Shown here: positions 5,592 through 45,367 of the stretch, piece after piece
Numbering within the stretch: position 1 is the first letter of the stretch
How the letters are laid out: each line of letters opens with the position of its first letter
Assembly: GCA_963729835.1 (NCBI GenBank)
Contig: CAVSQF010000039.1
Span: forward strand, 514,801 to 578,800
Direction: 5' to 3'
Origin: an uncultured delta proteobacterium
GTDB taxonomy: Bacteria > Desulfobacterota > Binatia > HRBIN30
Length of the DNA: 64,000 nt
Made by a program: the position numbers and the translations under genes
Notes under the pieces: model-generated
The model's database searches: none
Told to the model about the DNA's origin: nothing
What the model saw: only the letters and a program-made list of their open reading frames with translations

Positions 5592-6023
5592 TCACGACCC
5601 AGGATTGACCTCTCGACGGCGGAGCAGCGCATTCCCCCGCGCCAGTTGCTTGCGAAACACCGCTTCATCGCCACTGGTCTCCGCGCGTCGCAAATCGGCG
5701 AGGTTCTGTTTCCTCTGCGAGCGCAGAGCACGGTCTTCGATGCGTTTGATGCAGTCCAAAGCGATCTGGCAACGGTCTGCCGCTGCCACCGCGCCCTCGC
5801 CGAGTAACCCAGCTGCAACCCGTTCTACCATCGTATCCGGCAGCTGATCTACTGCGGATGCACTGCTGCCTTCTCTTTCCCACGCAGCCACAATGGCACG
5901 GCCGGCGTCGGCCAATGTCGCGTTCCGAAAAACGTCCAGCACGCCACGCTCCGCAGCCAGGAGCGCGGCTCCGCGGTCCAACGCCATGGCTTCCAGCAAA
6001 GTCATCTCTTCGGGACGAAACAC
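5592..6023 (-). CDS. Hypothetical helical protein; possibly the detached C-terminal (DnaB-interaction) region of DnaG
   Basis: 143 aa Ala/Arg-rich helical ORF. It overlaps the dnaG 3' end by 22 nt in another frame. dnaG is only 448 aa here, shorter than the typical ~600 aa. Confidence 0.35.
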   Translation of the reverse strand: MFRPEEMTLLEAMALDRGAALLAAERGVLDVFRNATLADAGRAIVAAWEREGSSASAVDQLPDTMVERVAAGLLGEGAVAAADRCQIALDCIKRIEDRALRSQRKQNLADLRRAETSGDEAVFRKQLARGNALLRRREVNPGS

Positions 6024-7348
6024 GGGGCAGTCTGTTCTGCCGCGCTGGGCATCGTTCCGGACGACGGTGCACGCTTGGCAAGCAGGCTGCGGAACACGGC
6101 TTCATCGACACCCAAGCGCTGCGCGGCTTTGCTCGCCAGCAAACTGGATTGCAGCGGGTCGGTGATGCGCGCGACGATTTCGGCAATTGCTTCTGCGGCG
6201 TGAGCACGTTGTGGCAGTGTGGCTTGTGAGCCGGGATCGAGGCGGTCGAGAAAGAAATCCGCGAGCGGAATGGCATTCTGCAAAAGCGTCCGTGTCGCCT
6301 CTGGACCGTGCGCGCGCACGTACGAGTCCGGATCAAAGCCGTCCGGGAGAAATGCTCCGAGCCCCCACACGCCCACTTCGGCACACAACGCGAAGGCGCG
6401 CATTGCCGCATTTTGTCCAGCGCGATCGCCGTCGAAGAACGCCACCACTTGCGGAGCAAACCGCCGCGCCAGGCGCAACTGGGCGGCGCTCAGCGCCGTG
6501 CCCAGGCTGGCAACGGCATATCCGATGCCCGCCTCTACAAGCGCGAGCGCATCGAGGTAGCCTTCAACCACCACCACCTGTTCAGCTTGACGGATCGGTT
6601 CCCGCGCTTCAAAAAGTCCGTACAACACCTGCCCTTTGTGGAAGATCGTCGACTCCGGCGAGTTGAGGTACTTGGGCTGGTCGTTACCGATTGTGCGCCC
6701 CCCGAAGCCGACGATACGACCGCTGCCGTTGCGGATCGGGAAGGTCACCCGTCCCCACAGGCGATCATAGGTACTGCCATCGCCTCGCCGCCCGATTAAG
6801 CCCAACGCAACTGCCTTCTCGATCCCACTCGGTTTTCCAGCCACAGCGCGCGCCAGGCCTGCACCGGCCTTTGGGCAAAACCCCAGGCCATAGCGTTCGA
6901 TCGTCAGCGCACTGAGCCCCCGTTTCTCCAGGTACTGACGGGCGGGCAGACCACTCTGGGATTGCAGGGCGCTGCGAAAACACCCTTGCGCCTTCTCGTT
7001 CAGTGCCAGCAATTCCTCCCGTTGCTCACCGCCAGCAGTCGCTTCCCTTTGCGCAGGCAGGACCACACCCGCACGGCGCGCCAGCAGCTCCACCGCCTCC
7101 GGGAATGCAACCCGCTCGGCGCGCATCACGAAAGTGAACACGGTGCCGCCCGCACCACAGCCGAAGCAATGGAAAAGTCCACGCTCGTCGTTCACCGTAA
7201 AGGACGGGGTTTTCTCGGAATGGAACGGACAGAGCCCGAGGTAATTCCTGCCGGCCTTCTTGAGGGCCACATAGCCGGAAACCACCTCGACGATACTCAC
7301 TCGCTCACGAATTGCCTGGAGGGCCTCGTCAGGGATTCTGCCGCCCAT
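6002..7348 (-). CDS. dnaG: DNA primase DnaG (zinc-binding, TOPRIM domains)
   Basis: N-terminal zinc ribbon CPFHSEKTPSF...CFGCGAGG and a TOPRIM region (VVVVEGYLDALAL... FFDGDRAGQNAA). Sits in the conserved rpsU-dnaG neighbourhood. Confidence 0.85.
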   Translation of the reverse strand: MGGRIPDEALQAIRERVSIVEVVSGYVALKKAGRNYLGLCPFHSEKTPSFTVNDERGLFHCFGCGAGGTVFTFVMRAERVAFPEAVELLARRAGVVLPAQREATAGGEQREELLALNEKAQGCFRSALQSQSGLPARQYLEKRGLSALTIERYGLGFCPKAGAGLARAVAGKPSGIEKAVALGLIGRRGDGSTYDRLWGRVTFPIRNGSGRIVGFGGRTIGNDQPKYLNSPESTIFHKGQVLYGLFEAREPIRQAEQVVVVEGYLDALALVEAGIGYAVASLGTALSAAQLRLARRFAPQVVAFFDGDRAGQNAAMRAFALCAEVGVWGLGAFLPDGFDPDSYVRAHGPEATRTLLQNAIPLADFFLDRLDPGSQATLPQRAHAAEAIAEIVARITDPLQSSLLASKAAQRLGVDEAVFRSLLAKRAPSSGTMPSAAEQTAPCFVPKR

Positions 7349-11653: not shown

Positions 11654-11712
11654 GGAATCCCGCCACCGCCGACAAAGCACAAAGCAGCGCCTTCGCCGCC
11701 TTCCGAGCCCCC

Positions 11713-11752
11713 AAAACACGAACGGGGCGCCCTAGGGCACCCCGTTCGTTCC
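11713..11752 (-). terminator. Intrinsic terminator hairpin between convergent gshB and the secreted-paralog operon
   Basis: Minus-sense AACGAACGGGGUGCCCUAGGGCGCCCCGUUCGUGUUUUGGGGG: a GC-rich stem followed by UUUU. Confidence 0.6.
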
Positions 11753-11770: not shown

Positions 11771-13003
11771 CTACGGCAAGGTGATCGTATCAGCCGTGCT
11801 CCGCGAGCCCTGCATGTGCAGGTTGAACGCGGCGCTTCTGTCGTTGTGGTGCTCCACGGCGACGCCGAGGATACCGCTCGGAACCGGTCCTACGCCGATC
11901 GCGTTCATCCGGGTTTGCCCAGTCAGCGTACCGGCTACCGCAACACTGAAAATCGACCGGCTACAGCTCGGAGTGTCGATGTTGCACAGCTCCAAGTCCT
12001 GGAAGCAGCTGACTGTCCTGCTGGTAGAGAAACGTTGCTCGAACTCGTTGAATACCAGGTACTGCACGACTGCGGTGCCTGGGATCTGCCGGAGCAGGTC
12101 TTCCGAACAGGGCACCAGAACGAGGTGCGTCATGATCGTGTCATCGGTGCCCGGCACCGGGTCGCTGGCGAGATCAAAGAAGTGATCGAGGATCAAGAAA
12201 TTCGGGCACCCATTGTATTCGCCAGCCGTGCCGCCGAGCGTGAGGACATTGCCCGAGACAGCGCTGCCGGCTACCGCCTGGATCCCTAGCGCATTGTAAC
12301 TGGCCACGTCCAAGTTAGCCGCGGGGGTCGTCTCGTACGTCTCGATCAGCGCCTCACCCTTCAGATCGTTGCTCGCGACCGGTGCACCCGTGGCATCGAC
12401 TTCGATGCACTTCAACTCGCCCACAAACGGGCTCTCCGAAACCGGAGGAATGCGCGTGCCAGCGTTGCTGTCCGTACAGTTTCCTCCCGGCACCGGATTA
12501 CAGTCGTCATTGGTGCCACACGCTTGGAAGGGGTTCTGTTGGCAGAAGCCATACGGCAACGGCAGCCCGCTATCGGCCAAGCCCGCTGAGGCCAGCCACT
12601 CGATCGGTTGGCCCTCCGTCAGGACGATATTGAAGTCCGTCTCTTGGCACTGGGGCACGCAAACCCCGCCGCCTGTGCAAGCTGCGGCGTTGCCCGTGCA
12701 CACCGCACCGTCCGCCGCCCCACCCGAGCAGTGTGAATTCGCATTGATATAGAAGCACTCCACGTTAATCGGTGTTGTCTGGTTGGTATTCGTCAGCCGG
12801 ATCACCGTGTCGCCGGTGGCTTGCACCACCACCTCGGGGTACACCACGATCGCTGCAGGCTTATCCGAGGCTATGTCCGCCCGTGCTGCTTGTCCGCCGG
12901 ACATAACGAATGCCGTTGCGACCGCCATCGTCCAGCCTGCCCATCGCACCTTTCCCATCTGTAGTCTCCTTTCCGCTGTCCTCGGACGCCGCATCATCAG
13001 CAC
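11771..13003 (-). CDS. Secreted Cys-rich protein, uncharacterised family, paralog 1 (intact)
   Basis: 410 aa with a signal peptide. It shares blocks with the three downstream paralogs: CFY(I/V)NA, FxGEL(K/E)CIEVD, LKGEA, YNA(L/I)G, ILDHFF, LxLVPCSED, QxLV(F/Y)NEFEQ, GQTRM, NLHxQG. Carries a P1-specific insert CTGNAAACTGGGVCVPQC. Confidence 0.75.
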   Translation of the reverse strand: MLMMRRPRTAERRLQMGKVRWAGWTMAVATAFVMSGGQAARADIASDKPAAIVVYPEVVVQATGDTVIRLTNTNQTTPINVECFYINANSHCSGGAADGAVCTGNAAACTGGGVCVPQCQETDFNIVLTEGQPIEWLASAGLADSGLPLPYGFCQQNPFQACGTNDDCNPVPGGNCTDSNAGTRIPPVSESPFVGELKCIEVDATGAPVASNDLKGEALIETYETTPAANLDVASYNALGIQAVAGSAVSGNVLTLGGTAGEYNGCPNFLILDHFFDLASDPVPGTDDTIMTHLVLVPCSEDLLRQIPGTAVVQYLVFNEFEQRFSTSRTVSCFQDLELCNIDTPSCSRSIFSVAVAGTLTGQTRMNAIGVGPVPSGILGVAVEHHNDRSAAFNLHMQGSRSTADTITLP

Positions 13004-13009
13004 CGGAAA

Positions 13010-14304
13010 TTAGTCCGAATTGAGCTGTTCCGCGGGAATCGTAATCACGTCCGCGGGCTCTTGACTCGGCGTCACCAGGGTCGTGTGGCCATTCTGTGCC
13101 GACCGGGCTGTGAGAGACCCTGCTGTGTGAGTCTCCTCGATCACCGCAATCACGCCGAACGGCGTGTTGGCCGCCGACCGCATCCGCGTCTGCACGACCG
13201 AGCTTTGAAGGTTCGCAGCCTGGAAGATCGAGTTGATGGTTTCCAAGTTCCACGATGCCCAACACTCCATGGTCGTCGATGCTGAGAACGTCTGTTCGAA
13301 CTCGTTGGTGATCGCGAATTGCAAGGCCACCGCTGGGGTTGACTGCAATTCGAAATTCTCGGTGCACGGCACTACAGTGAGGTTTGTGCCAACGGTGCTG
13401 CTCCCCCCGACCAACAGATCCGTAGCGCCGACGGCGCTGTGATCAAGGATCCAGGTAGCCGGGCACCCCGCGTACTCGGGACCACCCGGGCAGTTGGCGC
13501 CGCCGCCCTGCCCCACGCAGAGGACGTTGTCTTGGTTATTGGGGTTCAGCCCCTGGAGGCCAATCGCGTTGTACTTTGAAACATCGCCAGTCGCGATCTC
13601 CTCAAGGGTAGCTTCGCCCTTGAGCGAGTTGCCCGGCAGTGGAGCACCGCCAGCGTCGACCTCGATGCACATGAGCTCACCCGTGAAGCCGGGCACGACG
13701 GGCGGTACCCGTCCCGGATCAAAACCGGCATCACAACAGGGGTGACCGCCTGCGGGAAAAGTCGTGTCGTTGGGATTACAACTCACAGCCCTGCACGTGG
13801 CCTCGTTGGACGGATACAGACGCCCGGTTGAGGCCACCCAGTGCGTCGGTTGTTGTTTCGTCAGCCAGATGTCGAAATCGATCTCCGTACACAGCGGCGG
13901 GTTTACCTGTTCGCACACGGCGTTGTTGCCGCACACTCCAGCCACTTGCGGATTGCACGAAAGGCCGTTCGAAGCCCCGCCCTTACAAATGAAACCTCCA
14001 GGCGGTTGCCCGGGATCGTGGGCGCCCCATTTACGTAAAAGCAGTGGGCAAACCGCATACTGTTGGTGGTGTTGGTAATTTGAATGACCGTATCCCGAAC
14101 TCCATCGGCTATCACCTTTGGAAAAATCAGGATAGACGCGCTTTGCTCCGTGGTTACGGCAGCCGCCGCCGGCCTGGCTACAAACGCCGCCCCGACCAGT
14201 GCTGCGAGTCCAATGAGCCTTACTAGCCCTCGCTGCCTACGCATTACCCTCCTCCTTTCGATCACGCCGCACCGAAATTCGCCTAGGCGAACCCCTTCGA
14301 CCAA
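13010..14304 (-). pseudogene. Secreted Cys-rich family, paralog 2, split by a single frameshift near 13945
   Basis: ORF 13903..14304 (signal peptide + ILIFPKV...CFYVNGAP) and ORF 13010..13945 (EIDFDIWLTKQQPTHW ... C-terminus) are consecutive parts of one gene in different frames. A 1-nt indel lies at a G/C run. Confidence 0.6.
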
Positions 14305-14358
14305 GTGCGAGCCTTATATCTGTGGGGTCTGAGATTGTCAAGTCAAAAGGCCCTTTTT

Positions 14359-15632
14359 TCATAGTCCCCCCGCGGGCAGGTAAATGAAATCACTTTGGGG
14401 CCGAGTTCCCTGAAAATGCAGGTTGACCGCTGCGCTGCCCCCATCGGCACGGAATTCCTCCGCAACGCCAAGAAGCGTATGTCCCTGCGTCTGGTCTTGG
14501 TTAGCTACCCCGCGGATCCTCGTCTGCCCTGTCAATGTCCCCTGCACCGCGGCACTGAAAATCGATCGGTCCGTACTCGCTTTGTCGATATCGGAGATGT
14601 GGAACTCTTGGAAGCAGGTCACCGGGCGACTTGTCGACAGGCGTTGTTCAAACTCGTTGTACACCAAGAACTGGACCGTTGTCGTAACCGGCATCTGGGT
14701 TGCGAAATCTTCGGAGCACGGGACCAGCGTCAAGTCCGTAGTAACCTCAAGTCCTGAAACCGGATCGTCCGCACCGTCGAAAAAATGATCCAGAATGAGA
14801 ATGTTGGGGCACGAGCTGTACTCGGCGGGGCAGCTCCCGCCAGGGCATGAAGCGGCACCCGAACACGGCAACCCGTTGTTCGAAACCGCCGTTACAGCTG
14901 CCACCGAGGACGAGTGTGTTGTCGCCGTTGTTGGTCCCTGCATTCGCCGGAATGCCGACGGCATTGTACCCTTCCACGTCAATACTCGTCCCTGTCGAAC
15001 GAATGATCTCCGCCTCACCCTTCAAGTCATTCCGTTCGACGGGCACGTTGTTCTGATCGACGGCGATGCACTTCAACTCACCGATGAACGGGACCCTCCG
15101 GCACCCCAGGAATCCGGCTGCCGTCGTTATTTTGCCCGTTTGGACCCGGCCGGCCGCTGGTACTCAGTGGGAGGCACGGCACATCGGGGTTGTCGCTCTC
15201 TTGACACAGCACCGAACCCTGCGAAGCCAGCCATGCAATGGGTTGGCTTGCGGTGATATTCACGACGAAATCGCTCTCTTGCCAGTCAGCCTGGCATGCG
15301 CCAGTCGGGCTGCACGTCACCGGCGTCGAGAGGCAGCTTCCCGTTCCATTCGTGCAATGCGGGGTTGCATTGACGTAGAAACACCATATCGTGATGGGCT
15401 GGTTGGAGGTGTTGCTCACCCGGATCAGCGTATCGACTGGGCCTTGTGATGTTTGCGGCGGCACCGATGTATCCACAACCAGTTTGGGAAACACGAGAAT
15501 CGCCGCGGGCTCATCGGATGCAACGTTAGCGCGAGCACCCGACAGCGCGACACACGCCGCCACGACCGACACCGAACTCCACCACACAGCCTGCTTGAGC
15601 ATACCGAGCCGTCCTGTACGTGTGTGCATCAC
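14359..15632 (-). pseudogene. Secreted Cys-rich family, paralog 3, split by two frameshifts
   Basis: Three ORFs (15078..15632 N-terminal part with signal peptide, 14747..15076 middle, 14359..15018 C-terminal) are collinear with paralog 4. Lesions are near 15078 (EGP/FIGELKCIAVD) and near 14880 (GGSCNGG / LPCSGAASCPGG). Confidence 0.6.
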
Positions 15633-16828
15633 GGGGCCTCCGGCAATACAATGACGTCGCTGTTTGGACGCACCCCTTCGCCGTGCAGGTTCAACGCCGC
15701 ACGACTGACCAGCGGTGCCGCTACCGGTCCCTGGCTGTGAAACTCCTCAGCAACTCCTACGAAGCCCGGCTCGCCATCCGTCGCAGCGGTCATAAGCGTC
15801 TGGGCGAACCGCGTTCCGAGGAAGCCAACATCGAACACTCGCGCAATCGCGTCGAGTTGCAGATTACTCCAACAGGCCACCGTGGTACTGGTTGAGAACA
15901 GTTCCTCGAATTCATTCGTAATCTGGAATTGCACGGTCACCTGCCCCGCGATCTGGTTCTCAAAGTCTTCGCTGCATGGCACCAAGGTCAACTCAGTAAC
16001 CACCTTCGACGGACCGTTGCCGAGTTCGTCCACAGCCGGATCGTTGGCATTCTCCGCGAAATGATTCAGAATGACGGTCTCGGGGCAGGCGTTGTATTCC
16101 GCCCCGGTGGGGCACTGACTCGATTGCGCGCCCCCTAAGCACAGCGTGTTATCGCCGTTGTTCGACCCCTGATCCGAATTGATACCGAGCACGCCGATGG
16201 CGTTGTACTTGGACGCGTCACCGGCCGGCGTGACCAGTGTCGCCTCGCCCTTGAAATGGTTGCCATTGATCGGGGCGCCGGATGAATCCACCTCGATGCA
16301 CTCCAACTCGCCCGCAAACGGGTCAGAGACTGGCGGGATCAGTCCCGGGTCGAAGCCCGCACCGAAACAGTCCCGAACATCCTTGGTGCAGGACTTATCC
16401 GTCTGGTCGAACCGTCGGCCACTCGACACCACCCAATGCGTCGGTTGCTGCTTGGTGAGCCAAATGTCGAAATCGATTTCCTGACATTGCGCCGGGTTCA
16501 GAACTCCCGCCGGTTGAGAGGGATCCTCCGGTACCGCGTTCACGTAAAAGCAATGCGCGAACACCATCGAGTTCGACGTGCTGGAGATTTGAATGATCGT
16601 ATCGACGGGGGCTCCCGTCTGTATGCCCGTTGAATCGGATTGCACCTTCGGGAAGATCAGAATCGAACTGCTGAGTTCGGTGGTCACGTCCCCGGGCGCC
16701 CGCACGGCCGTGACGGCGAACACGATGGACGCCGCAACGCCCCAACGCGCAATCACCCCGCTCGCACTTCCCTTCATTCCATGCTCCTCCGTCGCGTCAA
16801 AGCCGCCGGGATTCCTGGCACTCGTCAT
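15629..16828 (-). CDS. Secreted Cys-rich protein, uncharacterised family, paralog 4 (intact)
   Basis: 399 aa with a signal peptide and every conserved block of the family (ILIFPKV, CFYVNA, EIDFDIWLTKQQPTHW, FAGELECIEVD, ILNHF, LTLVPCSEDF, NEFEELFSTS, NLHGEG). Confidence 0.75.
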   Translation of the reverse strand: MTSARNPGGFDATEEHGMKGSASGVIARWGVAASIVFAVTAVRAPGDVTTELSSSILIFPKVQSDSTGIQTGAPVDTIIQISSTSNSMVFAHCFYVNAVPEDPSQPAGVLNPAQCQEIDFDIWLTKQQPTHWVVSSGRRFDQTDKSCTKDVRDCFGAGFDPGLIPPVSDPFAGELECIEVDSSGAPINGNHFKGEATLVTPAGDASKYNAIGVLGINSDQGSNNGDNTLCLGGAQSSQCPTGAEYNACPETVILNHFAENANDPAVDELGNGPSKVVTELTLVPCSEDFENQIAGQVTVQFQITNEFEELFSTSTTVACWSNLQLDAIARVFDVGFLGTRFAQTLMTAATDGEPGFVGVAEEFHSQGPVAAPLVSRAALNLHGEGVRPNSDVIVLPEAP

Positions 16829-16954
16829 TGCTCCGGCCGCACGCCACGTCCGCGACCCTACGTCGCAAGTGTTGCTTTATAAACTGCTTAGCCCAACATG
16901 TCAACCTAAAAGATACACTACAACGTACGCCGGCAAAAGGCAATCGGTGTTGGC

Positions 16955-21014: not shown

Positions 21015-21104
21015 AACGGCCCGTAGACCGTAGGGGCCACTGTGCGGAGGCGCCGCCCCGCAATGATTCCTCGACGGCTACAGGGAATTGCCCGCCGCTC
21101 GGCT

Positions 21105-22439
21105 CTACACCCCGACGCGCCCGGCGATCTGCGCGTCCATCTGCTCCTGGTACTTGTCGAAATCCGCATCGGCGAGCAGCGTGTACAGGGTATCGAGTGG
21201 GAGGTGCTGGGTCAGCGGCGAACCCAGATCGGGCAGTTTGCTGCGGCGCAGCTCCTGCCACTCGCTGGCGCTCGGCGCATAGAACAGGTCGCCGAAGCCT
21301 GCCTGCTCGCAGCGCTTGTACAGCGCATCGCCGTCCCGCACCCTCTCGTATTCCGCACTGCCGCGCAGCTCGGTCATGAATTGCACCAGCTCCGGTTCGA
21401 CGGTGTAGAGTCGCGCCAGGCGCTTGGCGCCCAGGACCCCGATCACGTCATCGGCAACTCCCAGCTGATCCTCGTACGAGGTCTCTAATTGCGTCCGGAT
21501 CTCGGCGGCGGGCACCTCGGTCTGTGTGAGGAACCCACGGATGGCGTCGCACGGAGCCGTAAACACGTCGCAGCCCGCCAAGCGCGGGAAGGTCTGCCAC
21601 TCGCGGACACTGGCCACGATGAGCTGCGTCTTGATGCTGGGCGTCGCGCGCCGGACCTGCCGCAGCGCCCGTTGCCCCGCGATGCAGGCCTGCTCGCCGA
21701 TCAGGTCCGCCTTCAAACCTTGATTGAGCCGGCCGAGGAAGATGTTTGTGCGCTCGACATTGGCCAAGAGCGCCGCGGCCACCGCCTGGCGCGCCGAGAA
21801 GGTCGAGGTGAAATTCACCGGAATGCCCTCCCGCTCAAGGTCCCTGGCAACCAGAAAACAATGCGGAGCATGCGGCGTGAACGGCACCTTCACAATCGCG
21901 GAAGGCACCATGCGGCGCAGATACCGGCCGATGCGCGTCGCAGCCTCGGGGTCGCCGCCGAGATCCATGTGCAGCTGGAGGCTCACCTCCCACGCTCGCC
22001 CGGCGGCGAATGCCTGCACCATATCGCTGCCGATGCGGCCGCAGACGATCGCATACACCAGCGGCATCAGCTGACGCGGGCGCAGCGCCGGCTGGAGCGC
22101 TCGCAGTCCCTTCGCCCATCCTGCCGGGTCACCCTCGGCGAGATACCGCGCCAGCACCTTGTAAACCAGCGGCTGGTTGGCCGTGTTCCCGTCGATCTCC
22201 TGCAGGATCGCGCCATCACTCGTAGTGATGAGGCTGCGAAGCTCGGTCACATCTGCCGTGTCCGCATAGATGTGTGCCGTTCCAGCTTTGCCCACAGCGG
22301 CCAGGAGCGCGGAGGATTCGAGACGCGGCCGCGCCGCCACACCTGGCTTGCGCCCATAGGACACAACCGTCTCGTCGAATGTACCGTCCTGTGTCGTCCG
22401 CCGCTCGCTCATCGATGCATCTCCTCCAGGGCTGTCCAC
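21105..22439 (-). CDS. Transaldolase-family protein (long form)
   Basis: 444 aa. Central region resembles the transaldolase TIM barrel (IVKVPFTPHAPHCFLVARDLEREGIPVNFTSTFSARQAVAAALLANVE). Assignment is tentative. Confidence 0.5.
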   Translation of the reverse strand: MDSPGGDASMSERRTTQDGTFDETVVSYGRKPGVAARPRLESSALLAAVGKAGTAHIYADTADVTELRSLITTSDGAILQEIDGNTANQPLVYKVLARYLAEGDPAGWAKGLRALQPALRPRQLMPLVYAIVCGRIGSDMVQAFAAGRAWEVSLQLHMDLGGDPEAATRIGRYLRRMVPSAIVKVPFTPHAPHCFLVARDLEREGIPVNFTSTFSARQAVAAALLANVERTNIFLGRLNQGLKADLIGEQACIAGQRALRQVRRATPSIKTQLIVASVREWQTFPRLAGCDVFTAPCDAIRGFLTQTEVPAAEIRTQLETSYEDQLGVADDVIGVLGAKRLARLYTVEPELVQFMTELRGSAEYERVRDGDALYKRCEQAGFGDLFYAPSASEWQELRRSKLPDLGSPLTQHLPLDTLYTLLADADFDKYQEQMDAQIAGRVGV

Positions 22440-26248: not shown

Positions 26249-28486
26249 GCGACGCCCAAAAAGAAACCGACGCACGAATCGCGATCGACGATATGCTCCG
26301 GCAGGCACGCTGGGACCCGGCGGACAAGTCACAGGTGTTGACAGAGTTCACCGTTAAGCAGGCGTCTGGACTTGTCAGTGAGGAAGACGGCTTTGCGGGT
26401 ATCATCCATAGCGACGGCGATGACATGCCGACCGGACGCGCCGACTACGTGCTGCTGGATCAACGCGGACGTCCGCTTGCCGTTGTTGAAGCCAAACGCA
26501 CAGCTATCCAGCCCTACACCGCCAAGCAGCAGGTCCTTCCCTACGCCAAGAGCATCGGCGCGCCGTTCATCTTTCTAACAACGGCGAGGTGATCTACTTC
26601 TGGGACTACCCAACGACGACGCGCGCATCGTCAACTCGTTCTACTCCCGGCGCGACCTCGAACGTCTGGTCGAGATGCGGGCAGACACAGAAGCCGCTGG
26701 CGACGATTCCGATTCCCGAGCTATTACCTGAGGCAGGGCGAGACAGCGCGCGGTCCGCCCGTACCAGAAAGAAGCCATGCGCGCCCTCGACCAAGCCGTC
26801 GAACTGGGCAAGCGCCGCTTCCTCATCGAGCTGCCGACCGGCACCGGGAAGACGGACCTGATCTGCCTCTACCTCAAGCGCCTCATCAGAGCCGGCCGCG
26901 CTGAGCGCGTCTTTTTCTTGGTGGACCGCGAGCAACTCGCCAAGCAAGCGCTGGAGGCGATGCAAGACATCCTCAACCGGCACGGCAGCTATTGGCTCAA
27001 GCCGGGCATGATTCGGCAGGAGCAACAGATTACGGTCTGCCTGCTCCAGACGATGATCGGCCGCTATCAGGAGTTCACCAGCGGCTACTTCGATGTGGTC
27101 ATCGCCGATGAGTGCCATCGTTCCATCTATGGTGCCTGGCAGACGGCACTTACCCATTTCGACGCGCTCCACATCGGCCTGACTGCCACCCCGGCTGCCT
27201 ACATTGAACGGAACACCTTCCAGCTTCTATCACTGCAAGGACAGCGCAGCCGGACTTCTCCTACCCGATTCAAGAAGCTTTCGAAGAGGAGTACCTGGTC
27301 CCCTACAAGTTCGCCACCGGCATCACCGAGCTACTCGCTGAGGGTGCAGACGTGGACGATGAGCACTACGACCCAGCCGAGTTCGAGCGCAAATGGACCA
27401 ACGAGGACACCAACCGCAAGATGATGGAGGAGTTCGACCGGCTGGCCTGGGAGAACTACAAGGAGCTGGCGCCCGACCAGAAAGTTGGCCCGGGCAAGGC
27501 CATCGTCTTTGCGATCACCAAGCACCACGCCGCTCGGCTGGCGCAGTATCTCAACGAACTGCATCCCGGAGCAGAAAGGGCGCTACGCCGAAGTGATCAC
27601 CTCCGACGTTGCCAACGCCGAGGATCTCATCCGGCGCTTCAAACAGGAAGACTACCCGCAGATCGCCGTCAGCGTGGGCATGCTGGACACCGGTTTCGAT
27701 TGCCGCGAGGTGCTGCATCTGGTCATGTGCCGGCGCGTCCGCAGCCCGATCCTCTACCAGCAGATGCGCGGCCGCGGCACGCGCACCGCACCGCACATCG
27801 GCAAAGAGAAGTTCGTCATCTACGACTTCTTCGGCAATCACGAGTTTTTCAACGACAGCGACACGGACATCTTCGTCGGCACTGGTACTGGCCACGTGCC
27901 CAGCCCGCGGCCACCCCGACCGCCCGGCGGCCGTAACCTCATCGAGCTGGGTCTGGAGGACGAGTGGCTGCAAGCGGTCACCTACGTTGAAGTCGGGCCG
28001 CAAGGCGAGCGCATCGACAAGCAAGACTACGTAAGTCGACTGGGAGCAGGCCATCCGCGCTGCGGCGAAGGATGACGAGGTCGCTGCGTAAGGTGCGAGG
28101 CGGGTATCGAGCTAACGGCGGAAGAAGAGCAACGGCTTGCGGACAAGCTCAATCGTCCGGAGCACTACTTCAACGAAGAAAACCTGCGGCGCGCTTATCG
28201 CAACCCGGGCGGAACGTTGGTTGACTTCATCAGGCACGCGCTGGGAACGGCCAAGGTGAAGAGCCGCGAGGAAGTGGTCACCGAAGATTTCCGCGCGTGG
28301 CTCGTCTCCAAGAACCTCACGCCGGATCAGGCGCAGTACCTGGCCTTGCTCAAGAACCGCGGTATAGTGCGCGGCAAGGTGGACGTCGACGACCTCTTCC
28401 AGCCACCACTGTCGATTCTGAACGCTGCCAGCTCGGCGTCGAGCTGTTCGGCGAGAAGGGCCTGCAGGAGATCGTCACCGAAATGA
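26245..28486 (+). pseudogene. hsdR: Type I restriction enzyme R subunit HsdR, heavily degraded
   Basis: HsdR homology (nuclease N-terminus ADYVLLDQRGRPLAVVEAKR; helicase motifs I TGTGKT, II DECH, III TATP; DUF3387-like C-terminus) is spread over at least 6 ORF fragments in all three frames. Lesions mapped by frame tracking: 1-nt deletions near 26578 and 26611; an in-frame TGA at 26729; frameshifts near 27245, 27568, 28052/28098 (a compensating pair) and 28430. Confidence 0.8.
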
Positions 28487-30188
28487 ACGAGGCGATCTTC
28501 GCCAGAAGGCGCATAGCGGCGATGAACCAAGCCCTGCGCAGAAAGCTCGACCACATCACCGACATCCTGTGGGCTGGTGGGGTTACCAATCCGGTGACTT
28601 ACATCGAGCAGATTTCTTACCTCATTTACCTCAAGCTGCTCGACGAGGAGGAGTCGGTCCGTGAGCTGCAGGCGCGGCTCACCGGGAGGCGCGGCAACGG
28701 TAACAGCAAGAGTCTCTTTCCGCAGCAGGCTGAGCGCTACCGTTGGTCGAAGTGGCGCTTCAAGAGCGGCGAGGAGCTGCGCAACTTCGTGCGCGACGAG
28801 GTCTTCCCCTACATGGGCTCGCTGGTGCGGGAAGAACCGCAGATCGCCGAGTACTTCCGCGACGCGGTCTTGGAGATCGTCGACCCCAACGTGCTCAAGC
28901 AAGTCATTGATGAACTCGACAGCATCGACTTCCGCAAGCTCGGCACCGACGTGAAGGGCGACATCTTCGAGTATCTGCTCACTCATCTCGGCCAGTCGGC
29001 GCTCAACGGCCAGTTCCGCACGCCGCGGCAGATCCGCACGATGATGGTGGCGATGCTCGATCCCGATCTCGGCGACACGATTTTCGATCCGGCGTGACGG
29101 CACTGCAGGGTTCCTCATCGACTCCGTTGAACACATCCTGGCCAAGTACTCCGAGAACGCCGCAGGAGGTGCCGATCTACGGCGAGGAGTGGCTGGAGAA
29201 GCGCGGGCAAGCAATTGAAGAAGTCAAGGCGCAGATCCCCACGCTGCAGACGTATCGGAAGGGCGCCGGCGAAAAGATCCCGGACTGGGAGCTGCTGGAG
29301 CGGTCCATCTACGGCATCGACGTTTCGCGGCAGATGATGCGCATCGGCATGATGAACCTGGTCCTGCACGGCATCCGGCACGCGCAGGTGAAGCGCGCCA
29401 ACAGTCTCTCTGAGATGGGCGGGCTGAGTGAAGAGGACCTGCGGCGGCGCTACAAGGTCATTCTGTCCAACCCGCCGTTCGCCGGCGTGCTTCCGAGGGA
29501 ATCGATCCGCAAGGATCTGGGGACCAGCTCGAAGAAGAGCGAGCTACTGTTCCTCGGGCTGATGATGCAATCGCTCGCGCCGGGCGGCCGTTGCGCCGTG
29601 ATCGTACCCGAAGGGCTGCTGTTTGGCTCAACGTCGGCGCACGTCGAGCTCCGCCGCAAGCTCGTCGAAGAGTTCGAGTTACTCGCGGTCGTCTCACTGC
29701 CCGCGGGTGTTTTCAAACCTTACGCCGGAGTAAAAACGGGTGTCCTGGTGTTTCGCAGACCAGTGACCACTGATCACTCGTCACTGACCACTGCTCGTAA
29801 AGTCTGGTTCTACGAAATCCACGCCGACGGCTACGACCCCGACAAGATCACCGGCGGCGGCCGGCCGGAGACGCCTGAGCGGAATGACATCCCGAATCTT
29901 CTATCGCAATGGGCGACATACAAAGCATCCGGCTTCCGCGAACCGCCTGGGCATGAAGCCAACTCCCTTCTCAGTCCGGACGACTCCGCAGCGAGTTGCT
30001 GGTGGGCAACTGTCGGACTCGTTGCTGAGAACGACTACAATCTCGCGGCTGGGCGCTACAAGCCACAGGTCGCTGAGAAGGCGCCGGAAGAGAAACCCGA
30101 ACAGGTCGTCCAAGAGGTCCTCTCGATCGAGCGCGAGATTGAAGTGGGACTGGAACGACTGCTCAGGGATATTGAGACCGCACGGTAG
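28483..30188 (+). pseudogene. hsdM: Type I R-M methyltransferase HsdM, apparently disrupted by two +1 frameshifts
   Basis: The HsdM_N region and motif I (GQFRTPRQI...IFDPA) read in one frame up to a TGA at 29095. DPACGTAGFLIDSVEHIL continues only after deleting one base. The downstream part (YGIDVSRQMMRIGMMNLVLHGI, NPPF) is in the third frame, which requires a second shift near 29170-29215. Confidence 0.6.
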
Positions 30189-31451
30189 ATGGAACACAGA
30201 GGCTCAATGGCGTTTCCTTGGCGGCGTGTTCCGTTCGAACACGCGTGCTCGGACACGACGGGCGGTCAGATGAAGGTCCAGAAGCGCGACTATCTCACCG
30301 ACGGCCCTCTGCCGGTAGTCGACCAAGGGCAACAACCTGTCGCAGGATACACGGATGCATTGGATGCAGCCTATCGCGGCCCACTGCCTGTTGTGCTTTT
30401 TGGAGATCACACACGCGTGTTCAAGTACGTGGATTTCCCGTTCGCGCTCGGAGCGGATGGAGTGAAAGTACTCGTCGCGAAGCATCCTTTCCATCCCAAG
30501 TTTCTTTGGTTCTACTTCCGGTCCCTGCAGATCCCGAGCCGCGGGTACAGCCGCCATTTCAAATTCTTGGGCGAGTTTGCGGTGCCGCTTGTGGCTCCAT
30601 CCGAGCAGCGGCGCATCGTGGAGATCCTCGACCAGGCCGAGGCGCTGCGGAAGCTGCGCGCCGCGGCCGACGCCAAGGCCGAGCGCATCCTGCCCGCGCT
30701 CTTCTACAAAATGTTCGGCGACCCGGCGACGAACCCGATGGTGTGGCCAATCTCGAAGCTTGGCGACCCCGACATTACATTGGAGTTCCGCTACGGAACA
30801 TCGAGCAAGTGTGAGCCCGAACCGCAGGGATTGCCCGTCTTGAGAATACCGAACGTGTTGAAGGGGGAGATCGACTTGGCTGATCTGAAGTATGCAGATC
30901 TATCGGGAGCTGAAGTCGAGCGCCTGCTCTTGGCGCGAGGGGATCTGCTCTTCGTGAGGACGAACGGAAACCGGGAGTATGTGGGCCGCTGCGCGGTCTT
31001 TGATCTTCCCAAGCCTTTCTTGTTCGCTTCCTACCTTATCCGCGCACGGCTGAACGCCTCGAAGGTTGACCCTTGGTACGTGGCCGCGTTTCTTCGGAGC
31101 CCGGTGGGCCGCCAGCATATGTCACCGGTGATTCGAACCACGGCCGGTCAGTCGAACATCAGCGTCGAAGGACTGAGCAACATCGAGATACTTGTGCCCC
31201 CAATTGAACATCAGCATCGATTTCGGTCGCTGACCCAGGAACTGCTTAGACTTCGGCGCCAACGTGAGTCCGCAGCGGCAGCACTACAGACCGCGTTCGA
31301 AACGCTGCTTCATCGTACATTCTCCGGCGACCTGACGGCCAAGTGGCGCGAGGCGCACATGCAGGAGCTGCTGGCGGAGATGGAGGGGCAGGCGAAGGCT
31401 CTAGCCGGAGCAAATCCCGACACGGCTGTCGAGCGCGGGGCTCTCGTATGA
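30189..31451 (+). CDS. hsdS: Type I R-M specificity subunit HsdS (two target-recognition domains, intact)
   Basis: 420 aa with two TRDs separated by a conserved central region and a C-terminal coiled-coil repeat (LRKLRAAADAKAERILPALFYKMFG ... LLRLRRQRESAAAALQTAFETLLHRTF). Confidence 0.8.
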   Translation: MEHRGSMAFPWRRVPFEHACSDTTGGQMKVQKRDYLTDGPLPVVDQGQQPVAGYTDALDAAYRGPLPVVLFGDHTRVFKYVDFPFALGADGVKVLVAKHPFHPKFLWFYFRSLQIPSRGYSRHFKFLGEFAVPLVAPSEQRRIVEILDQAEALRKLRAAADAKAERILPALFYKMFGDPATNPMVWPISKLGDPDITLEFRYGTSSKCEPEPQGLPVLRIPNVLKGEIDLADLKYADLSGAEVERLLLARGDLLFVRTNGNREYVGRCAVFDLPKPFLFASYLIRARLNASKVDPWYVAAFLRSPVGRQHMSPVIRTTAGQSNISVEGLSNIEILVPPIEHQHRFRSLTQELLRLRRQRESAAAALQTAFETLLHRTFSGDLTAKWREAHMQELLAEMEGQAKALAGANPDTAVERGALV

Positions 31452-36126: not shown

Positions 36127-38763
36127 TCACGTTTTCGTCCTTTCCTTTTCTGGCCGGGGTTTCTGCGCGCTGAATGGTTGGCGTGCGACAGTCTCTTCCG
36201 CAGGTCTGATCAGTCTACCCAGGTCGGCCCGGAGCTTGGCCGCGAAGTGAGCCACCAGGCTGGCATCAGCCATGGCCATGTCCAGTTGGCGGGTGTGTAT
36301 GATCAGGTGGCCTAGGGCTCGCACGCTCTCCAAGGCCTCGGCATCACTCAAGTGGTCCCGGCGCGCCCGTATGGCATCGGCACGGATGACCGCCGCGAAA
36401 CCCAACTCCTCCAGCAGTTCGGCCATGAGGTGAAGGCGGGTCTGCTTGCGGGCCATGTCGGCCCCGCCGCCTTGGAAGGCGAACAGCACAAAATCTTCCT
36501 CTGGGTCGGGACCGGCCAAGACTTCCACCGCAGCAAAGTGCGCTCCCAGCCGCGATTGCAAGTTCATGAAGTCGCGCCCCACCAGGAAGTAGTTGCCTTC
36601 TTCCCAACCGGCACGGGTCTCCAGTTCCGGCCGCATGGTGGACTGCACGATGACCGAAGTCAGCCCGGAGCCGGTGATCGGCGGCCCATCCCAGGGCACA
36701 GCCAGCATGCCCTCCCACAGGGCCAGCCATGGCCGACTGGCGATCTGCTCGACGCGCACATACTTGCCGCTCACCTCTTCCGTGAAGCCGCCGCCGATGT
36801 CGATGAGCCGCCACTGCATAGGTGCGTTGCAGTAGAGCCTCTTGGCTGCAGCGACCGGAAACTTCTTCCCGCCCAGGCTGAAGATCTCGCGCACCGCCTG
36901 CTCATGGCAGAAACGGGTTAGATCATGCAGGGTGCGACAACTCGCCACATTGAACTCTGGGGAAGATGGGTCCGGGAGGTTCAGCGGTACGGCCAATGCG
37001 ATGAGCTGCTCGAGGCTGCGCCGGATAGGGGTCTGCGGTGCCGGCGGCGCCGGCCGGGCTCTCAGCAGGCCCTCCACGCGGCCGGGATAGATAGCTCGGC
37101 GGTCCGCATCCACTGTGATCACCTTCCCTTGCCTCGAGCCGTTTCAAATCCGGCCCCACGTCCAGAAGCGCCGGCACCCTAAACTCTCGCGCCACGGTGG
37201 CTAAATGGCCCGCCAGCCCGCCGTGGCCCGCAACCAAGGCCTCAGCCCGGCTCAAGAGAGGGGCCCAACGTGGCAGCGGCCGCTCTACAACCAGCACCTG
37301 GCCGGCCTCGAAGAGCATGGCGTCACGCCCGGTACGCACCCAGTGCACCACCCCAGCGGCTGCCCCAGGTGCGGCCCCGAGCCCAGCGCTGATGATCGGA
37401 TCAGGCAGCCCCTCCACCAGCGGCTGGGCGGCCGCTGCAGCTTGACGGTGGAGCGGCCGACATTGCAGGTAAACCAGCTGCCCTCCCCTATCCAGTGCCC
37501 ACTCCAAGTCCTGCGGCCCCCCGAATGCCATCTCCACCTCTTTAGCACAGGCAGCTAGTTCCTTGGCCAGGTCATCGCTGAGCGGACTTGTGTTTCTTAG
37601 CCCCTTTGGTAGCTCAGCCGACAGCACCCCGCTGGAAGGGTCGCACTGGTAGTAGCGGTCCTGGCTGCCGGCGCGGCGCTGCAGGACTCCGCTTTCGGTG
37701 TCCACCACGATCTCCACGGCCTCTGCCGAGCCGTCCACCACGCCCTTGGGCAGGCCCCAGCAGGCGCTGATGTACACCCTGCCGTCGGCCGGGTCCAAGG
37801 GTGAGGCACTGTACACCACCCCTCCAGCTCGGGCCGGAAGCATCACCAGGCAGCCCGCTGCCATGGCTAGGTCCTGGTCTCTCAGACCATGGTGGCCATA
37901 GTAACTAAGGGCCTGCGGGCCGTAAGCGCTGGCAACGACCTCGCGATAGGCCTCGCACAGTGCGGCGGGCGTTACGTTCAACTCGGTGTGAAACTGACCG
38001 GCAAAGGAAGCCGCGCCCACGTCCTCTCCCAAAGCGCTGGAACGCACCGCAAGCTTCAACTCGGGACCGTGGCGCTGGAGCAGCCGTTGGCAGGCGGCCG
38101 CCATTTCCTGTTCCAACTCCGGGGGCAACTCGCCCTCGATGAAGAGCCGCTGCAAAGCGGAACAGGCGGCAAACAGCTCGTCGACCCCGCTCAGACTCTT
38201 GATCTGCAGCAGCCGGTTGATTTCGGCGCGCAGGTCGTTGTGCTCCACGAAGCGGGCGTAGGCCACGGTGGTGATCACGAACCCGTCGGGCACCGTCAGC
38301 CCCAGCCGGTTGCCCAGTTGTGCCAGTGTGGCCATCTTGGGGCCGGCCAGGTCATCAGCCCCTACGCCAAGCTCACCCAACTCAACCACAAGGGGCCGTG
38401 GGGCAACGGCCGCGCCCCGGCGACCTGCTCGTCCAGCTCCCGCTTCAGCGCCGTGAAGCGCTCCATCAGCGCGGTGTAGCGTCCCGGTGCTAGCTTCTGC
38501 AGTTCCTGGATCATGGCCAACACGCTCACCGCCATTTCGGTAGCCGCCGAACGCAGGCGCGCCATGGTGACGGGCTCCGGACTCTGCTGAGCCTCTTGGA
38601 GTTCGGCCATGATGGTCAACGCCCGGCTGTTGGCCTTGAGCAGGTTGCGGTAGCCCAGGAACCGCCCCGCGAGACGAGTGCGTAGCTCGGCCAGCACCGC
38701 CTGATCCTGCGCACCAGACCGGCCGCGGAACAGGGACTTGATCAGGGTGCCCCAGCCGCCCAT
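36127..38763 (-). pseudogene. Swivel-histidine dikinase-like protein (N-helical + PPDK_N/ATP-grasp + PEP-utilizers mobile His + novel C-terminal domain), paralog A; two frameshifts
   Basis: ORFs 38362..38763 (helical N-terminal domain, homologous to the paralog B N-terminus), 36923..38389 (PPDK_N-like domain and swivel motif GGLAGHLATVAREFRVPAL) and 36127..37122 (C-terminal domain) are collinear with the intact paralog B. Lesions lie near 38375 and 37123 (EG/KVITVDADRR). Confidence 0.6.
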
Positions 38764-44020: not shown

Positions 44021-45367
44021 TTAAGGCCATCGGGGCAGTGGACCGCGGTTGGGCGGAGCCTTTTTGGCGTAGTTGCTCATTTTGATTTTGACTGCTCGCG
44101 CATAGCGACGAGGCCGGCGTTTGGGCAAGACCAGGAGCGCGATTTGTTCATGCAAGGCCGCCAGGCGCTTGGGTAGTACACCAGGACTGGCCAGCCACGC
44201 GCTGACGAGGAAGTTGCGTACGAGCATGAGTGAGTGGCGAAAGCTGATGCGCGCCGGGGGCAGTTTCAGCCGGGTAGCCACTTGGAGCATTTCGAGCCGC
44301 ACCAGATTGTAAGCAATGGCGAGTCCCCAGAGCTCTTGCAGCACTCGTTGTGGGGACTTGCTGCGCAGGGTTTCGAGACGTTCCAGGGCGTGAGTCTTTA
44401 CTTCGTCGAACCCGATCTCGAGCTCCCAGCGTTCGTGGTAGAGGTGGACGATCTCGGAGGCCGGGTAGGTGTTGGGATCGAGCAGAGAGGTCAGCAATAC
44501 CTGCGGGCGAAAGCCGCGGCGCTGGTAGCGAATGGCACGGGCAGTGAGGCACTCGGGCAACTCGGGGTGCTGCTTGCGCAGGGAGCGATTGATGCGAATC
44601 TGCACGAGATCGTCGTGGGGGCCAAGCCGGCGTACGACCTGCCACTTCAGATTGCGTTTGCTGCGACAGAGCCAGTGCCGCTCGGTGCCCTGGCTCTGGA
44701 TGGAGTAGAAGACGAAGTAATTGATGAACCCCTTGTCGACCACGGTGACACAGTGGTCGGGCAGACGGTTCCAGAGTTCCTGAGCCAGCGTTTGCTCGCC
44801 GGTGTGGTAGGAGCCCGGAACGATGTCCGCCAGCAGATGAGCCCGCAGCACCATCAGGGCGACCAGCCGGAGCTGCGGATAGGCCCCCGCACTGCGGCCA
44901 TTACATGGGCGGCCGAACACGAGCTCGTTGTCGGCCGTGTCCGCGATCAACATCGTGGTGCCATCCACCCCGTAGACGGCCAGCCCCCGCCACCGCAGCG
45001 CGGCGGCAGCCGTCCCCGCCCAGCGTTGTGCGGTTTCGCCAAACAGCACGGCCAGTGGTTCACAGCCCAGCCGATCCCGGGCCCGCACGACGGCAGTCCG
45101 GCTGACCTCGTCGTCTTCCTTGATCTCCGGCAGGACCAGATCGAGGTGCTGGACGACTTCGTCAATGCAGCGGTCGCGCAGCAGCGCCATGCCGAGCACC
45201 AGCCAGACGACCAACTCCGCGGGCAGTTTGCGCTTGCGCACACTGGCCGTGCCGGTAGCGGTCAACACCCGTCTGACCCACGCCAGGTCCAGGGTGCGGC
45301 TGAACAGCGCAAAACTCTCACTGCGATTTCCTTCTCCGAGCACCTGCAGGGCCTCTGCCAGCTCCAT
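44021..45367 (-). CDS. IS4-family DDE transposase
   Basis: 448 aa with a DDE_Tnp_1 pattern (…VYGVDGTTM…, …VVDKGF…, …YHERWELEIGFDEVK…). Confidence 0.85.
   Translation of the reverse strand: MELAEALQVLGEGNRSESFALFSRTLDLAWVRRVLTATGTASVRKRKLPAELVVWLVLGMALLRDRCIDEVVQHLDLVLPEIKEDDEVSRTAVVRARDRLGCEPLAVLFGETAQRWAGTAAAALRWRGLAVYGVDGTTMLIADTADNELVFGRPCNGRSAGAYPQLRLVALMVLRAHLLADIVPGSYHTGEQTLAQELWNRLPDHCVTVVDKGFINYFVFYSIQSQGTERHWLCRSKRNLKWQVVRRLGPHDDLVQIRINRSLRKQHPELPECLTARAIRYQRRGFRPQVLLTSLLDPNTYPASEIVHLYHERWELEIGFDEVKTHALERLETLRSKSPQRVLQELWGLAIAYNLVRLEMLQVATRLKLPPARISFRHSLMLVRNFLVSAWLASPGVLPKRLAALHEQIALLVLPKRRPRRYARAVKIKMSNYAKKAPPNRGPLPRWP

Follow-up and report, generated by a model that had tools for sequence, protein, structure and literature searches.

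The window analyzed here is a 64,000-nucleotide (nt) stretch of DNA (64 kb) from an uncultured member of the Binatia (assembly GCA_963729835.1, contig CAVSQF010000039.1, positions 514,801 to 578,800). Its minus strand carries an array of four paralogous genes, spanning 16777..11771, that encode proteins of ~380 to 420 amino acids (aa) each. In order of transcription the genes are A1, B1, A2, and B2; they belong to two types and form two A-then-B pairs. We propose, with a probability of about 0.6, that the products are exported by Sec, stabilized by disulfides, and work as A-B partners in the cell envelope of Binatia, where they would have a binding or structural role. An earlier reading of this DNA, made from its letters alone (the sequence-only reading), described the array as a single operon of amplified and decaying genes and overlooked its organizing principle, A-B pairs with promoters of their own.

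Four secreted, cysteine-rich paralogs of two types

Searches of the window by tblastn with A1 and B2 as queries found exactly four related genes, all on the minus strand (E values of 1e-25 to 1e-81, 35 to 53% identity), and no further family gene elsewhere in the 64 kb. A1 (type A; 15629..16777, minus strand) is an intact open reading frame (ORF) of 382 aa with a Sec signal peptide and an exact database copy, P0001. Its start lies at 16777 in that copy and in the orthologs; 16828 is an in-frame ATG further upstream. B1 (type B; 14359..15629, minus strand) is read by tblastn in frames -3, -1, and -2; it has two +1 insertions/deletions (indels) and, when corrected, encodes 422 aa. The B1 ATG overlaps the A1 stop codon by one base (TGATG), and the same 1-nt overlap is present in the gene calls of three syntenic loci, L001, L005, and L076, giving four genomes with the window included. 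A2 (type A; 13010..14244, minus strand) is read in frames -2 and then -1, has one -1 indel, and encodes 411 aa after correction. B2 (type B; 11771..12958, minus strand) is an intact ORF of 395 aa with a Sec signal peptide and an exact database copy, P0271; a longer form of the ORF begins at 13003. A2 and B2 are separated by a gap of ~50 nt with a Shine-Dalgarno sequence in between.

All four N termini have a Sec-type signal peptide ending in A-x-A, and A1, B1, A2, and B2 contain 10, 16, 16, and 16 Cys residues. Thus, tblastn, signal peptides, and Cys counts of 10 to 16 bear out the sequence-only reading in its description of four minus-strand tandem paralogs that are secreted and Cys rich. The motif blocks that it listed as invariant are present, but they are not invariant in all four proteins, since several are specific to a subtype: TKQQPTHW and ILIFPKV occur only in A1 and A2, and ILDHFF occurs only in B1 and B2. 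Type B also carries extra Cys-rich inserts. The two types are nevertheless homologous over their full length (hhalign probability of 100%, 356 aligned columns) and share a set of invariant polar and aromatic residues (E-DF, QP-W, KGE, YNA, VPC, NE-E, Q, and N-H). Five Cys are kept in all 16 proteins compared, and many orthologs have an odd Cys total. The C termini of the four window proteins stop right after the last beta-strand (...LP), without a tail.

Two variable positions were observed in the course of these comparisons. In three of the four ortholog groups, the column right before the invariant E-DF (A1 residue ~97, QCQE) holds Cys in some proteins and Trp in others; in B1 it is always Trp in the set compared. 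The Cys/Trp switch flips the Cys total between even and odd. A2 contains a 30-aa insertion with four Cys, GFICKGGASNGLSCNPQVAGVCGNNAVCEQV (~13915 to 14005), which the window shares with L076 and which L005 and L001 lack.

The A-then-B pair is a conserved unit in Binatia

Homolog searches with A1 and with B2 each returned >1,400 proteins, all unnamed or called “hypothetical”; the named ones come from Candidatus Binatia metagenome-assembled genomes (MAGs). An exhaustive search with hidden Markov models yielded 1,584 clusters at 50% identity. In a scan of GTDB species genomes, almost all family loci either were labeled Binatia (in the candidate phylum Binatota according to NCBI) or had the same synteny under older or mis-binned labels, and several family loci were found per genome. 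The family appears to be restricted to Binatia.

Of the 75 loci fetched, 28, from many different Binatia-type MAGs, have the four-gene form A1-B1-A2-B2 downstream of ilvE. These 28 comprise L001, L005, L076, and 25 further loci, and their setting is (topA-trmFO-glnE-)ilvE followed by the array and usually then by gshB-rsmE-prmA. Wherever gene calls existed at syntenic loci, as in L001, L005, and L076, none of the four genes is broken. The nearest relative of each window gene is the one that occupies the same position in the other genome, and orthology is 1:1. Because the order, the place, and the 1:1 orthologs are the same across Binatia genomes, the array is best read as an old, fixed Binatia locus of ancient paralogs and not as a recent amplification. 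In the window, the Binatia synteny topA-trmFO-glnE-ilvE ends just past glnE, where a transaldolase-like gene (22439..21105) replaces trmFO (~21071 to 22439).

The pairing of the two types extends beyond this locus. Among the 117 A genes of all nonredundant loci, 108 have a B gene as their immediate downstream neighbor; of the 120 B genes, 108 have an A gene before them. Further A-then-B pairs occur in the same genomes in two other conserved neighborhoods (L054, L060, L062, L069, L070, and L074 and L051, L056, L058, L061, L066, and L067). One features an FG-GAP protein that is transcribed divergently, along with LptD and two MsbA-like ABC exporters; in the other, the pair comes after a UDP-glucose dehydrogenase and two large, Cys-rich proteins of the DUF7107/PD40 kind. 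Some relatives join half an A and a full B in one chain, and P0183 and P0221 are natural A-B fusions.

In other relatives the family domain forms the C terminus of FG-GAP, CARDB, EF-hand, or Vgb-lyase-like (propeller) proteins. The extracellular location that the sequence-only reading had suggested fits these fusions to FG-GAP, CARDB, and EF-hand modules. In some B-type relatives (P0122 and P0150), a Pro/Thr linker and then GC, a hydrophobic helix, and RRRR follow the B-type domain, which suggests that relatives with such a Gly-Cys/helix/Arg tail may be anchored at the surface in some lineages; NCBIfam recognized no sorting domain in the relatives with these sorting-tail-like ends.

A promoter-like site precedes each A gene of the array

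A pattern scan located a promoter-like site upstream of each pair: TTGACA-N17-TATAAA for A1-B1 (16876..16904, minus strand) and TTGACA-N17-TATAAG, preceded by an A/T-rich tract, for A2-B2 (14313..14341, minus strand). The pattern TTGACA-N17-TATAAR has no other match in the 64 kb; both sites lie upstream of A genes, and 0.00 matches are expected from shuffled sequences. In 1.03 Mb of related loci, all 83 matches to the strict pattern are on the strand of the family genes. With a relaxed pattern, a match lies upstream of 86 A genes out of 121 and of 0 of 134 B genes. The hexamers of the A1-B1 site are kept in orthologous loci with a variable spacer; the A2-B2 site is nearly identical in 17 orthologous loci. 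It is from sequence that we infer that the TTGACA-N17-TATAA(A/G) sites act as promoters. Since each A gene has its own site, the locus is most simply read as two predicted bicistronic units, A1-B1 and A2-B2, instead of the one four-gene operon proposed earlier.

The 5' leader of A2 (14245..14312, minus strand) contains a small TTCGC...GCGAA hairpin and an AGGAGG Shine-Dalgarno sequence and is almost invariant across Binatia in a 17-locus alignment. Near-invariance extends over 14200 to 14341 (minus strand), taking in the promoter-like site, the leader, and the first ~16 codons of A2 with their synonymous sites; it was observed in L001, L005, L006, L011, and others, though their A2 proteins are only ~50 to 58% identical. 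This pattern suggests a conserved regulatory RNA or operator. RNAalifold on the leader found essentially no covariation in a sequence that hardly varies, which is too little variation for a test of structure, and no Rfam family matched at the locus, A2 leader included. Downstream of B2, a strong hairpin with a T run resembling an intrinsic terminator was read in the sequence (11710..11752, minus strand; ACGAACGGGGTGCCC-TAG-GGCGCCCCGTTCGT and then GTTTTGG). Its inner part was flagged by a scan, and the hairpin is present in L076 too.

All four genes are under purifying selection

The ratio of nonsynonymous to synonymous substitution rates (dN/dS) was calculated against L076 after correction of the three indels. 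It is 0.137 for A1, 0.146 for B1, 0.159 for A2, and 0.154 for B2, compared with 0.06 for ilvE, 0.18 for glnE, 0.17 for gshB, and 0.28 for rsmE among the neighbors. Identity to the L076 orthologs is 88% for A1, 87% for B1, and 87% for A2. With L005 as the outgroup, the amino acid changes unique to the window and to L076 number 18 and 15 in A1, 14 and 17 in B1, 15 and 6 in A2 (P = 0.08), and 10 and 11 in B2, so that the broken copies show no significant extra lineage-specific change in this comparison. Purifying selection acts on all four genes, broken or intact, as strongly as on their neighbors. Because dN/dS is 0.14 to 0.16 and none of the genes has a significant excess of changes on this lineage, there is no diversifying selection and no measurable decay.

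These results bear directly on the evolutionary scenario of the sequence-only reading, in which a surface or antigen-like gene was recently amplified in tandem and is diversifying and decaying into pseudogenes. Four paralogs do lie side by side, two of them frameshifted, and their variable Cys-rich loops differ among lineages. However, the paralogs are just 35 to 53% identical and yet have same-position orthologs across Binatia genomes, the array is fully intact in L001, L005, and L076, and the low dN/dS speaks against diversification. We therefore regard recent amplification as highly improbable. Amplification with ongoing decay has to give way to ancient paralogs that keep the same order and place, and diversifying, antigen-like evolution to purifying selection on an array whose copy number and order recur downstream of ilvE. 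The check on phylogenetic distribution that had been called for thus upheld the family as real, with an old Binatia-wide locus, and contradicted its recent expansion.

The frameshifts most likely arose in the assembly

In L076, the 87% identical relative used as the reference, all four genes are intact and encode 381, 425, 410, and 380 aa. Against it, the only indels in the window genes that are not multiples of three are +1 at ~15093 (CC to CCC), +1 at ~14882, and -1 at ~14012 (GGGG to GGG). The first two are in B1 and the third in A2, and two of the three alter the length of a C or G run. The earlier count of one frameshift in paralog 2 and two in paralog 3 is right if the genes are numbered in ascending coordinate order. 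Downstream of every indel, the correct frame continues, open and conserved, to the natural stop codon. The A2 indel coincides with the 5' edge of the 30-aa insertion, and the second B1 indel likewise falls inside a variable Cys-rich loop.

Frameshifts are found elsewhere in the window as well. The primase gene dnaG (5604 to 7348, minus strand) is split by a shift at ~6040 to 6085: frame -1 encodes the catalytic part, and frame -3 encodes the C-terminal domain. In L076 the gene is a single 590-aa ORF. A type I restriction-modification locus (26744 to 31451, plus strand) is in pieces: hsdR consists of at least three ORFs (among them ResIII at 26777 to 27424 and Helicase_C at 27485 to 28075), and hsdM is split at ~29095 by one extra A within the DPACGTAGFL methyltransferase motif. 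A gene with PPDK_N and PEP-utilizer (swivel) domains (36127 to 38389, minus strand) shifts at ~37131, ~200 nt before the stop codon of the upstream frame, and its downstream 331-aa ORF has no Pfam match of its own. The window also contains an IS4-family transposase gene (Nterm_IS4 and DDE_Tnp_1; 44021 to 45367, minus strand).

dnaG is an essential gene, and its broken state here therefore argues for indel errors in the assembly. The three frameshifts of the array are most likely such assembly indels; if they were real, they would be very recent lesions in one strain. The alternative is that the family is as we describe it and B1 and A2 have truly been inactivated by recent single-base lesions, leaving A1 and B2 as a mixed pair. 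With three indels in 2.5 kb, this locus is denser in them than the rest of the window, the two intact genes happen to be one A and one B, A2 has the weak excess of lineage-specific substitutions noted above, and the restriction-modification genes may be real pseudogenes too. Yet the essential primase gene is frameshifted as well, B1 and A2 have the same dN/dS as A1 and B2, every frame remains open and conserved beyond the shift, and the 87% identical relative is intact. On balance, we find true inactivation the less probable explanation, although one to be taken seriously. Phase variation was considered and rejected, the runs being merely 2 to 4 bases long and the relatives intact. Of the pseudogene reading, the disrupted frames stand, in the form of three indels that are not multiples of three; relaxed selection and confinement to dispensable genes do not, the latter given the split dnaG, and the reading is doubtful. 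Frameshifts in this assembly, that of dnaG included, should not be read as pseudogenes without support from reads.

A predicted all-beta fold without a whole-chain match

No Pfam, NCBIfam, or PHROG family matched the four proteins above its cutoff. At E ≤ 1, Pfam gave one chance-level match, to TLP1_add_C for B2 (E = 0.22, below the cutoff, an unrelated family), and a sequence-profile search of the PDB gave 0 matches at E ≤ 10. This family did not turn up in targeted literature searches on Binatia (secreted proteins, Cys-rich proteins, and metaproteomics). With no sequence match in Pfam, NCBIfam, PHROG, or the PDB and with named homologs called “hypothetical protein,” the claim of an unrecognized family holds.

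AlphaFold2 models built with family alignments are confident and all beta, with a predicted local distance difference test score of 83 and a predicted template modeling score of 0.83 for A1 and of 87 and 0.86 for B2. The N-terminal 27 to 31 residues, which are the signal peptides, are of low confidence or disordered in both. Foldseek found no whole-chain PDB match for either model (template modeling [TM] score below 0.25). For both models it matched TM1070 (1nc7) over one domain (probability of 1.0, TM score of 0.65 to 0.69 on the target, ~140 aligned columns). TM1070, from Thermotoga, is orthologous to the sensory rhodopsin transducer of Anabaena (ASRT), a member of a beta-sandwich superfamily predicted to bind small molecules or sugars and related to CBM4-2 (PMC2739507). 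Matches to arrestin/Vps26, adhesins, pilins, factor XIII, and capsids had TM scores below 0.25 and were discarded as generic beta-sandwich noise. A viral capsid-like jelly roll was likewise rejected: norovirus and birnavirus proteins gave TM scores of 0.10 to 0.18 at a probability below 0.45, BFVD gave TM scores of ≤0.19, and no PHROG matched.

A and B could instead be secreted enzymes of a new fold class (using, for example, the conserved Cys of VPC-S-E-D with the His of N-L-H or the acids of NEFE) or beta-sandwich domains cross-linked intramolecularly, with no binding or structural role. Unusually many polar residues are invariant over paralogs that split before the sampled Binatia diverged; the conservation of five Cys, an odd number, in 16 of 16 proteins and the many odd totals make a free thiol possible; and the weak Foldseek matches include isopeptide-bonded pilins and transglutaminase sandwich domains. 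We consider this explanation plausible, though of low probability: no enzyme family was matched by sequence (Pfam, NCBIfam, or PDB profile), the pilin and factor XIII matches have TM scores below 0.2, and some putative catalytic residues, such as the His of LDHFF and the Asp of SEDF, vary. Another alternative is that A and B form a secreted toxin of two components, in the manner of binary insecticidal toxins or of the bicomponent leukocidins of staphylococci, which would also be a cotranscribed, paralogous, secreted beta-rich pair. The housekeeping surroundings, conserved synteny, several pairs per genome, and purifying selection count against a toxin, no Pfam family, toxin families included, was matched, and no leukocidin or aerolysin was among the top 50 Foldseek PDB matches; its probability is very low.

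Proposed role of the A-B pairs

Our preferred reading of A and B as partner proteins of the cell envelope would work as follows. Each pair would be transcribed from its own near-consensus sigma-70-like promoter, with A1 and B1 translationally coupled through the TGATG stop/start overlap. Both proteins would be exported by Sec and oxidized into disulfide-stabilized beta-sandwich proteins, and A and B would act jointly as a heteromer, either periplasmic or at the cell surface. The many polar and aromatic residues that are invariant in both types may mark a conserved site of ligand binding or catalysis and be more than parts of a scaffold. As the only structural match is to the ASRT/TM1070 beta-sandwich, our best guess for the ligand would be a small molecule or a glycan.

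Several observations weigh against this proposal. The TM1070 match covers a single domain at 6 to 10% identity, with no Pfam match to ASRT. The promoter-like sites were left unscored by the consensus scan because they lack the final T, and promoter function in Binatia is putative; the codon bias of the four genes is ordinary (effective number of codons of 41 to 46) and does not back very high expression. The excess of lineage-specific changes in A2 (15 versus 6), weak as it is, and the fall of 3 of the ~8 frameshifts of the window within 2.5 kb of this locus, above an even error rate, fit the proposal less well. Finally, it is from sequences and models that we infer the A-B complex, the location beyond the signal peptide, and the ligand.

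A bolder version of the same idea is that the A-B pairs are subunits of an undescribed, Binatia-wide extracytoplasmic assembly or activity. An example would be a disulfide-linked heteromer, of a new fold of tandem beta-sandwiches, that makes up or decorates the envelope. It would be encoded by at least three pair loci per genome, with the strongest local promoters and, for A2, with the ultraconserved leader RNA controlling expression. We put this forward only tentatively and think it rather improbable in this full form. Judging from the targeted literature searches, neither the A-B rule nor the promoters nor the A2 leader seems to have been described before.

Binatia (Binatota) are uncultured and widespread in soils and sediments, and we know of nothing that has been reported on their cell envelope. 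Lineage-specific families of hypothetical proteins are common. The apparent restriction of this one to Binatia, its several A-B pairs, its core-genome position, purifying selection, and near-consensus promoters make it a candidate for a major envelope component or a lineage-defining activity. Its ~1,600 sequence clusters without domain annotation are a possible addition to Pfam, and the A-then-B rule yields a clear, testable hypothesis of heteromer formation.

Comparison with known systems

The ASRT/ASRAH proteins (TM1070, PDB 1nc7; Pfam DUF1362) are beta-sandwich proteins and the only confident structural match of the A1 and B2 models; they come nearest among known proteins, at the level of the fold and for one domain only. 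They are single-domain proteins of ~120 aa, whereas here the matching domain is part of an exported, Cys-rich mature chain of ~350 aa, and sequence profiles did not place A or B in ASRT/DUF1362 (Pfam at E ≤ 1; PDB profiles at E ≤ 10). The two-domain beta-sandwich adhesins and pilins (N2N3 of ClfB and FnBPA, CfaE, FmlH, and PilA/PilB of Streptococcus sanguinis) are similar in being extracellular, all-beta, tandem sandwich proteins and gave weak Foldseek matches. They differ in that the TM scores are 0.1 to 0.2, the window proteins lack LPXTG or a sortase signal, and no chaperone-usher genes are nearby; the neighbors are glnE, ilvE, gshB, rsmE, and prmA at the array and ABC exporters, LptD, UDP-glucose dehydrogenase, and an FG-GAP protein at the pair loci.

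Cys richness is unusual for S-layer proteins, and the four window proteins are Cys rich and have no SLH or other Pfam domain. Surface proteins with C-terminal sorting tails of Gly-Cys, a helix, and Arg are MYXO-CTERM-like; the distant members P0122 and P0150 resemble them, unlike the four tailless window proteins. The staphylococcal bicomponent leukocidins (S and F) show no similarity to A and B in sequence or fold and are alike in logic only, as an adjacent, cotranscribed pair of secreted beta-rich paralogs; they are accessory virulence genes, whereas the A and B genes are class-wide genes of the core genome.

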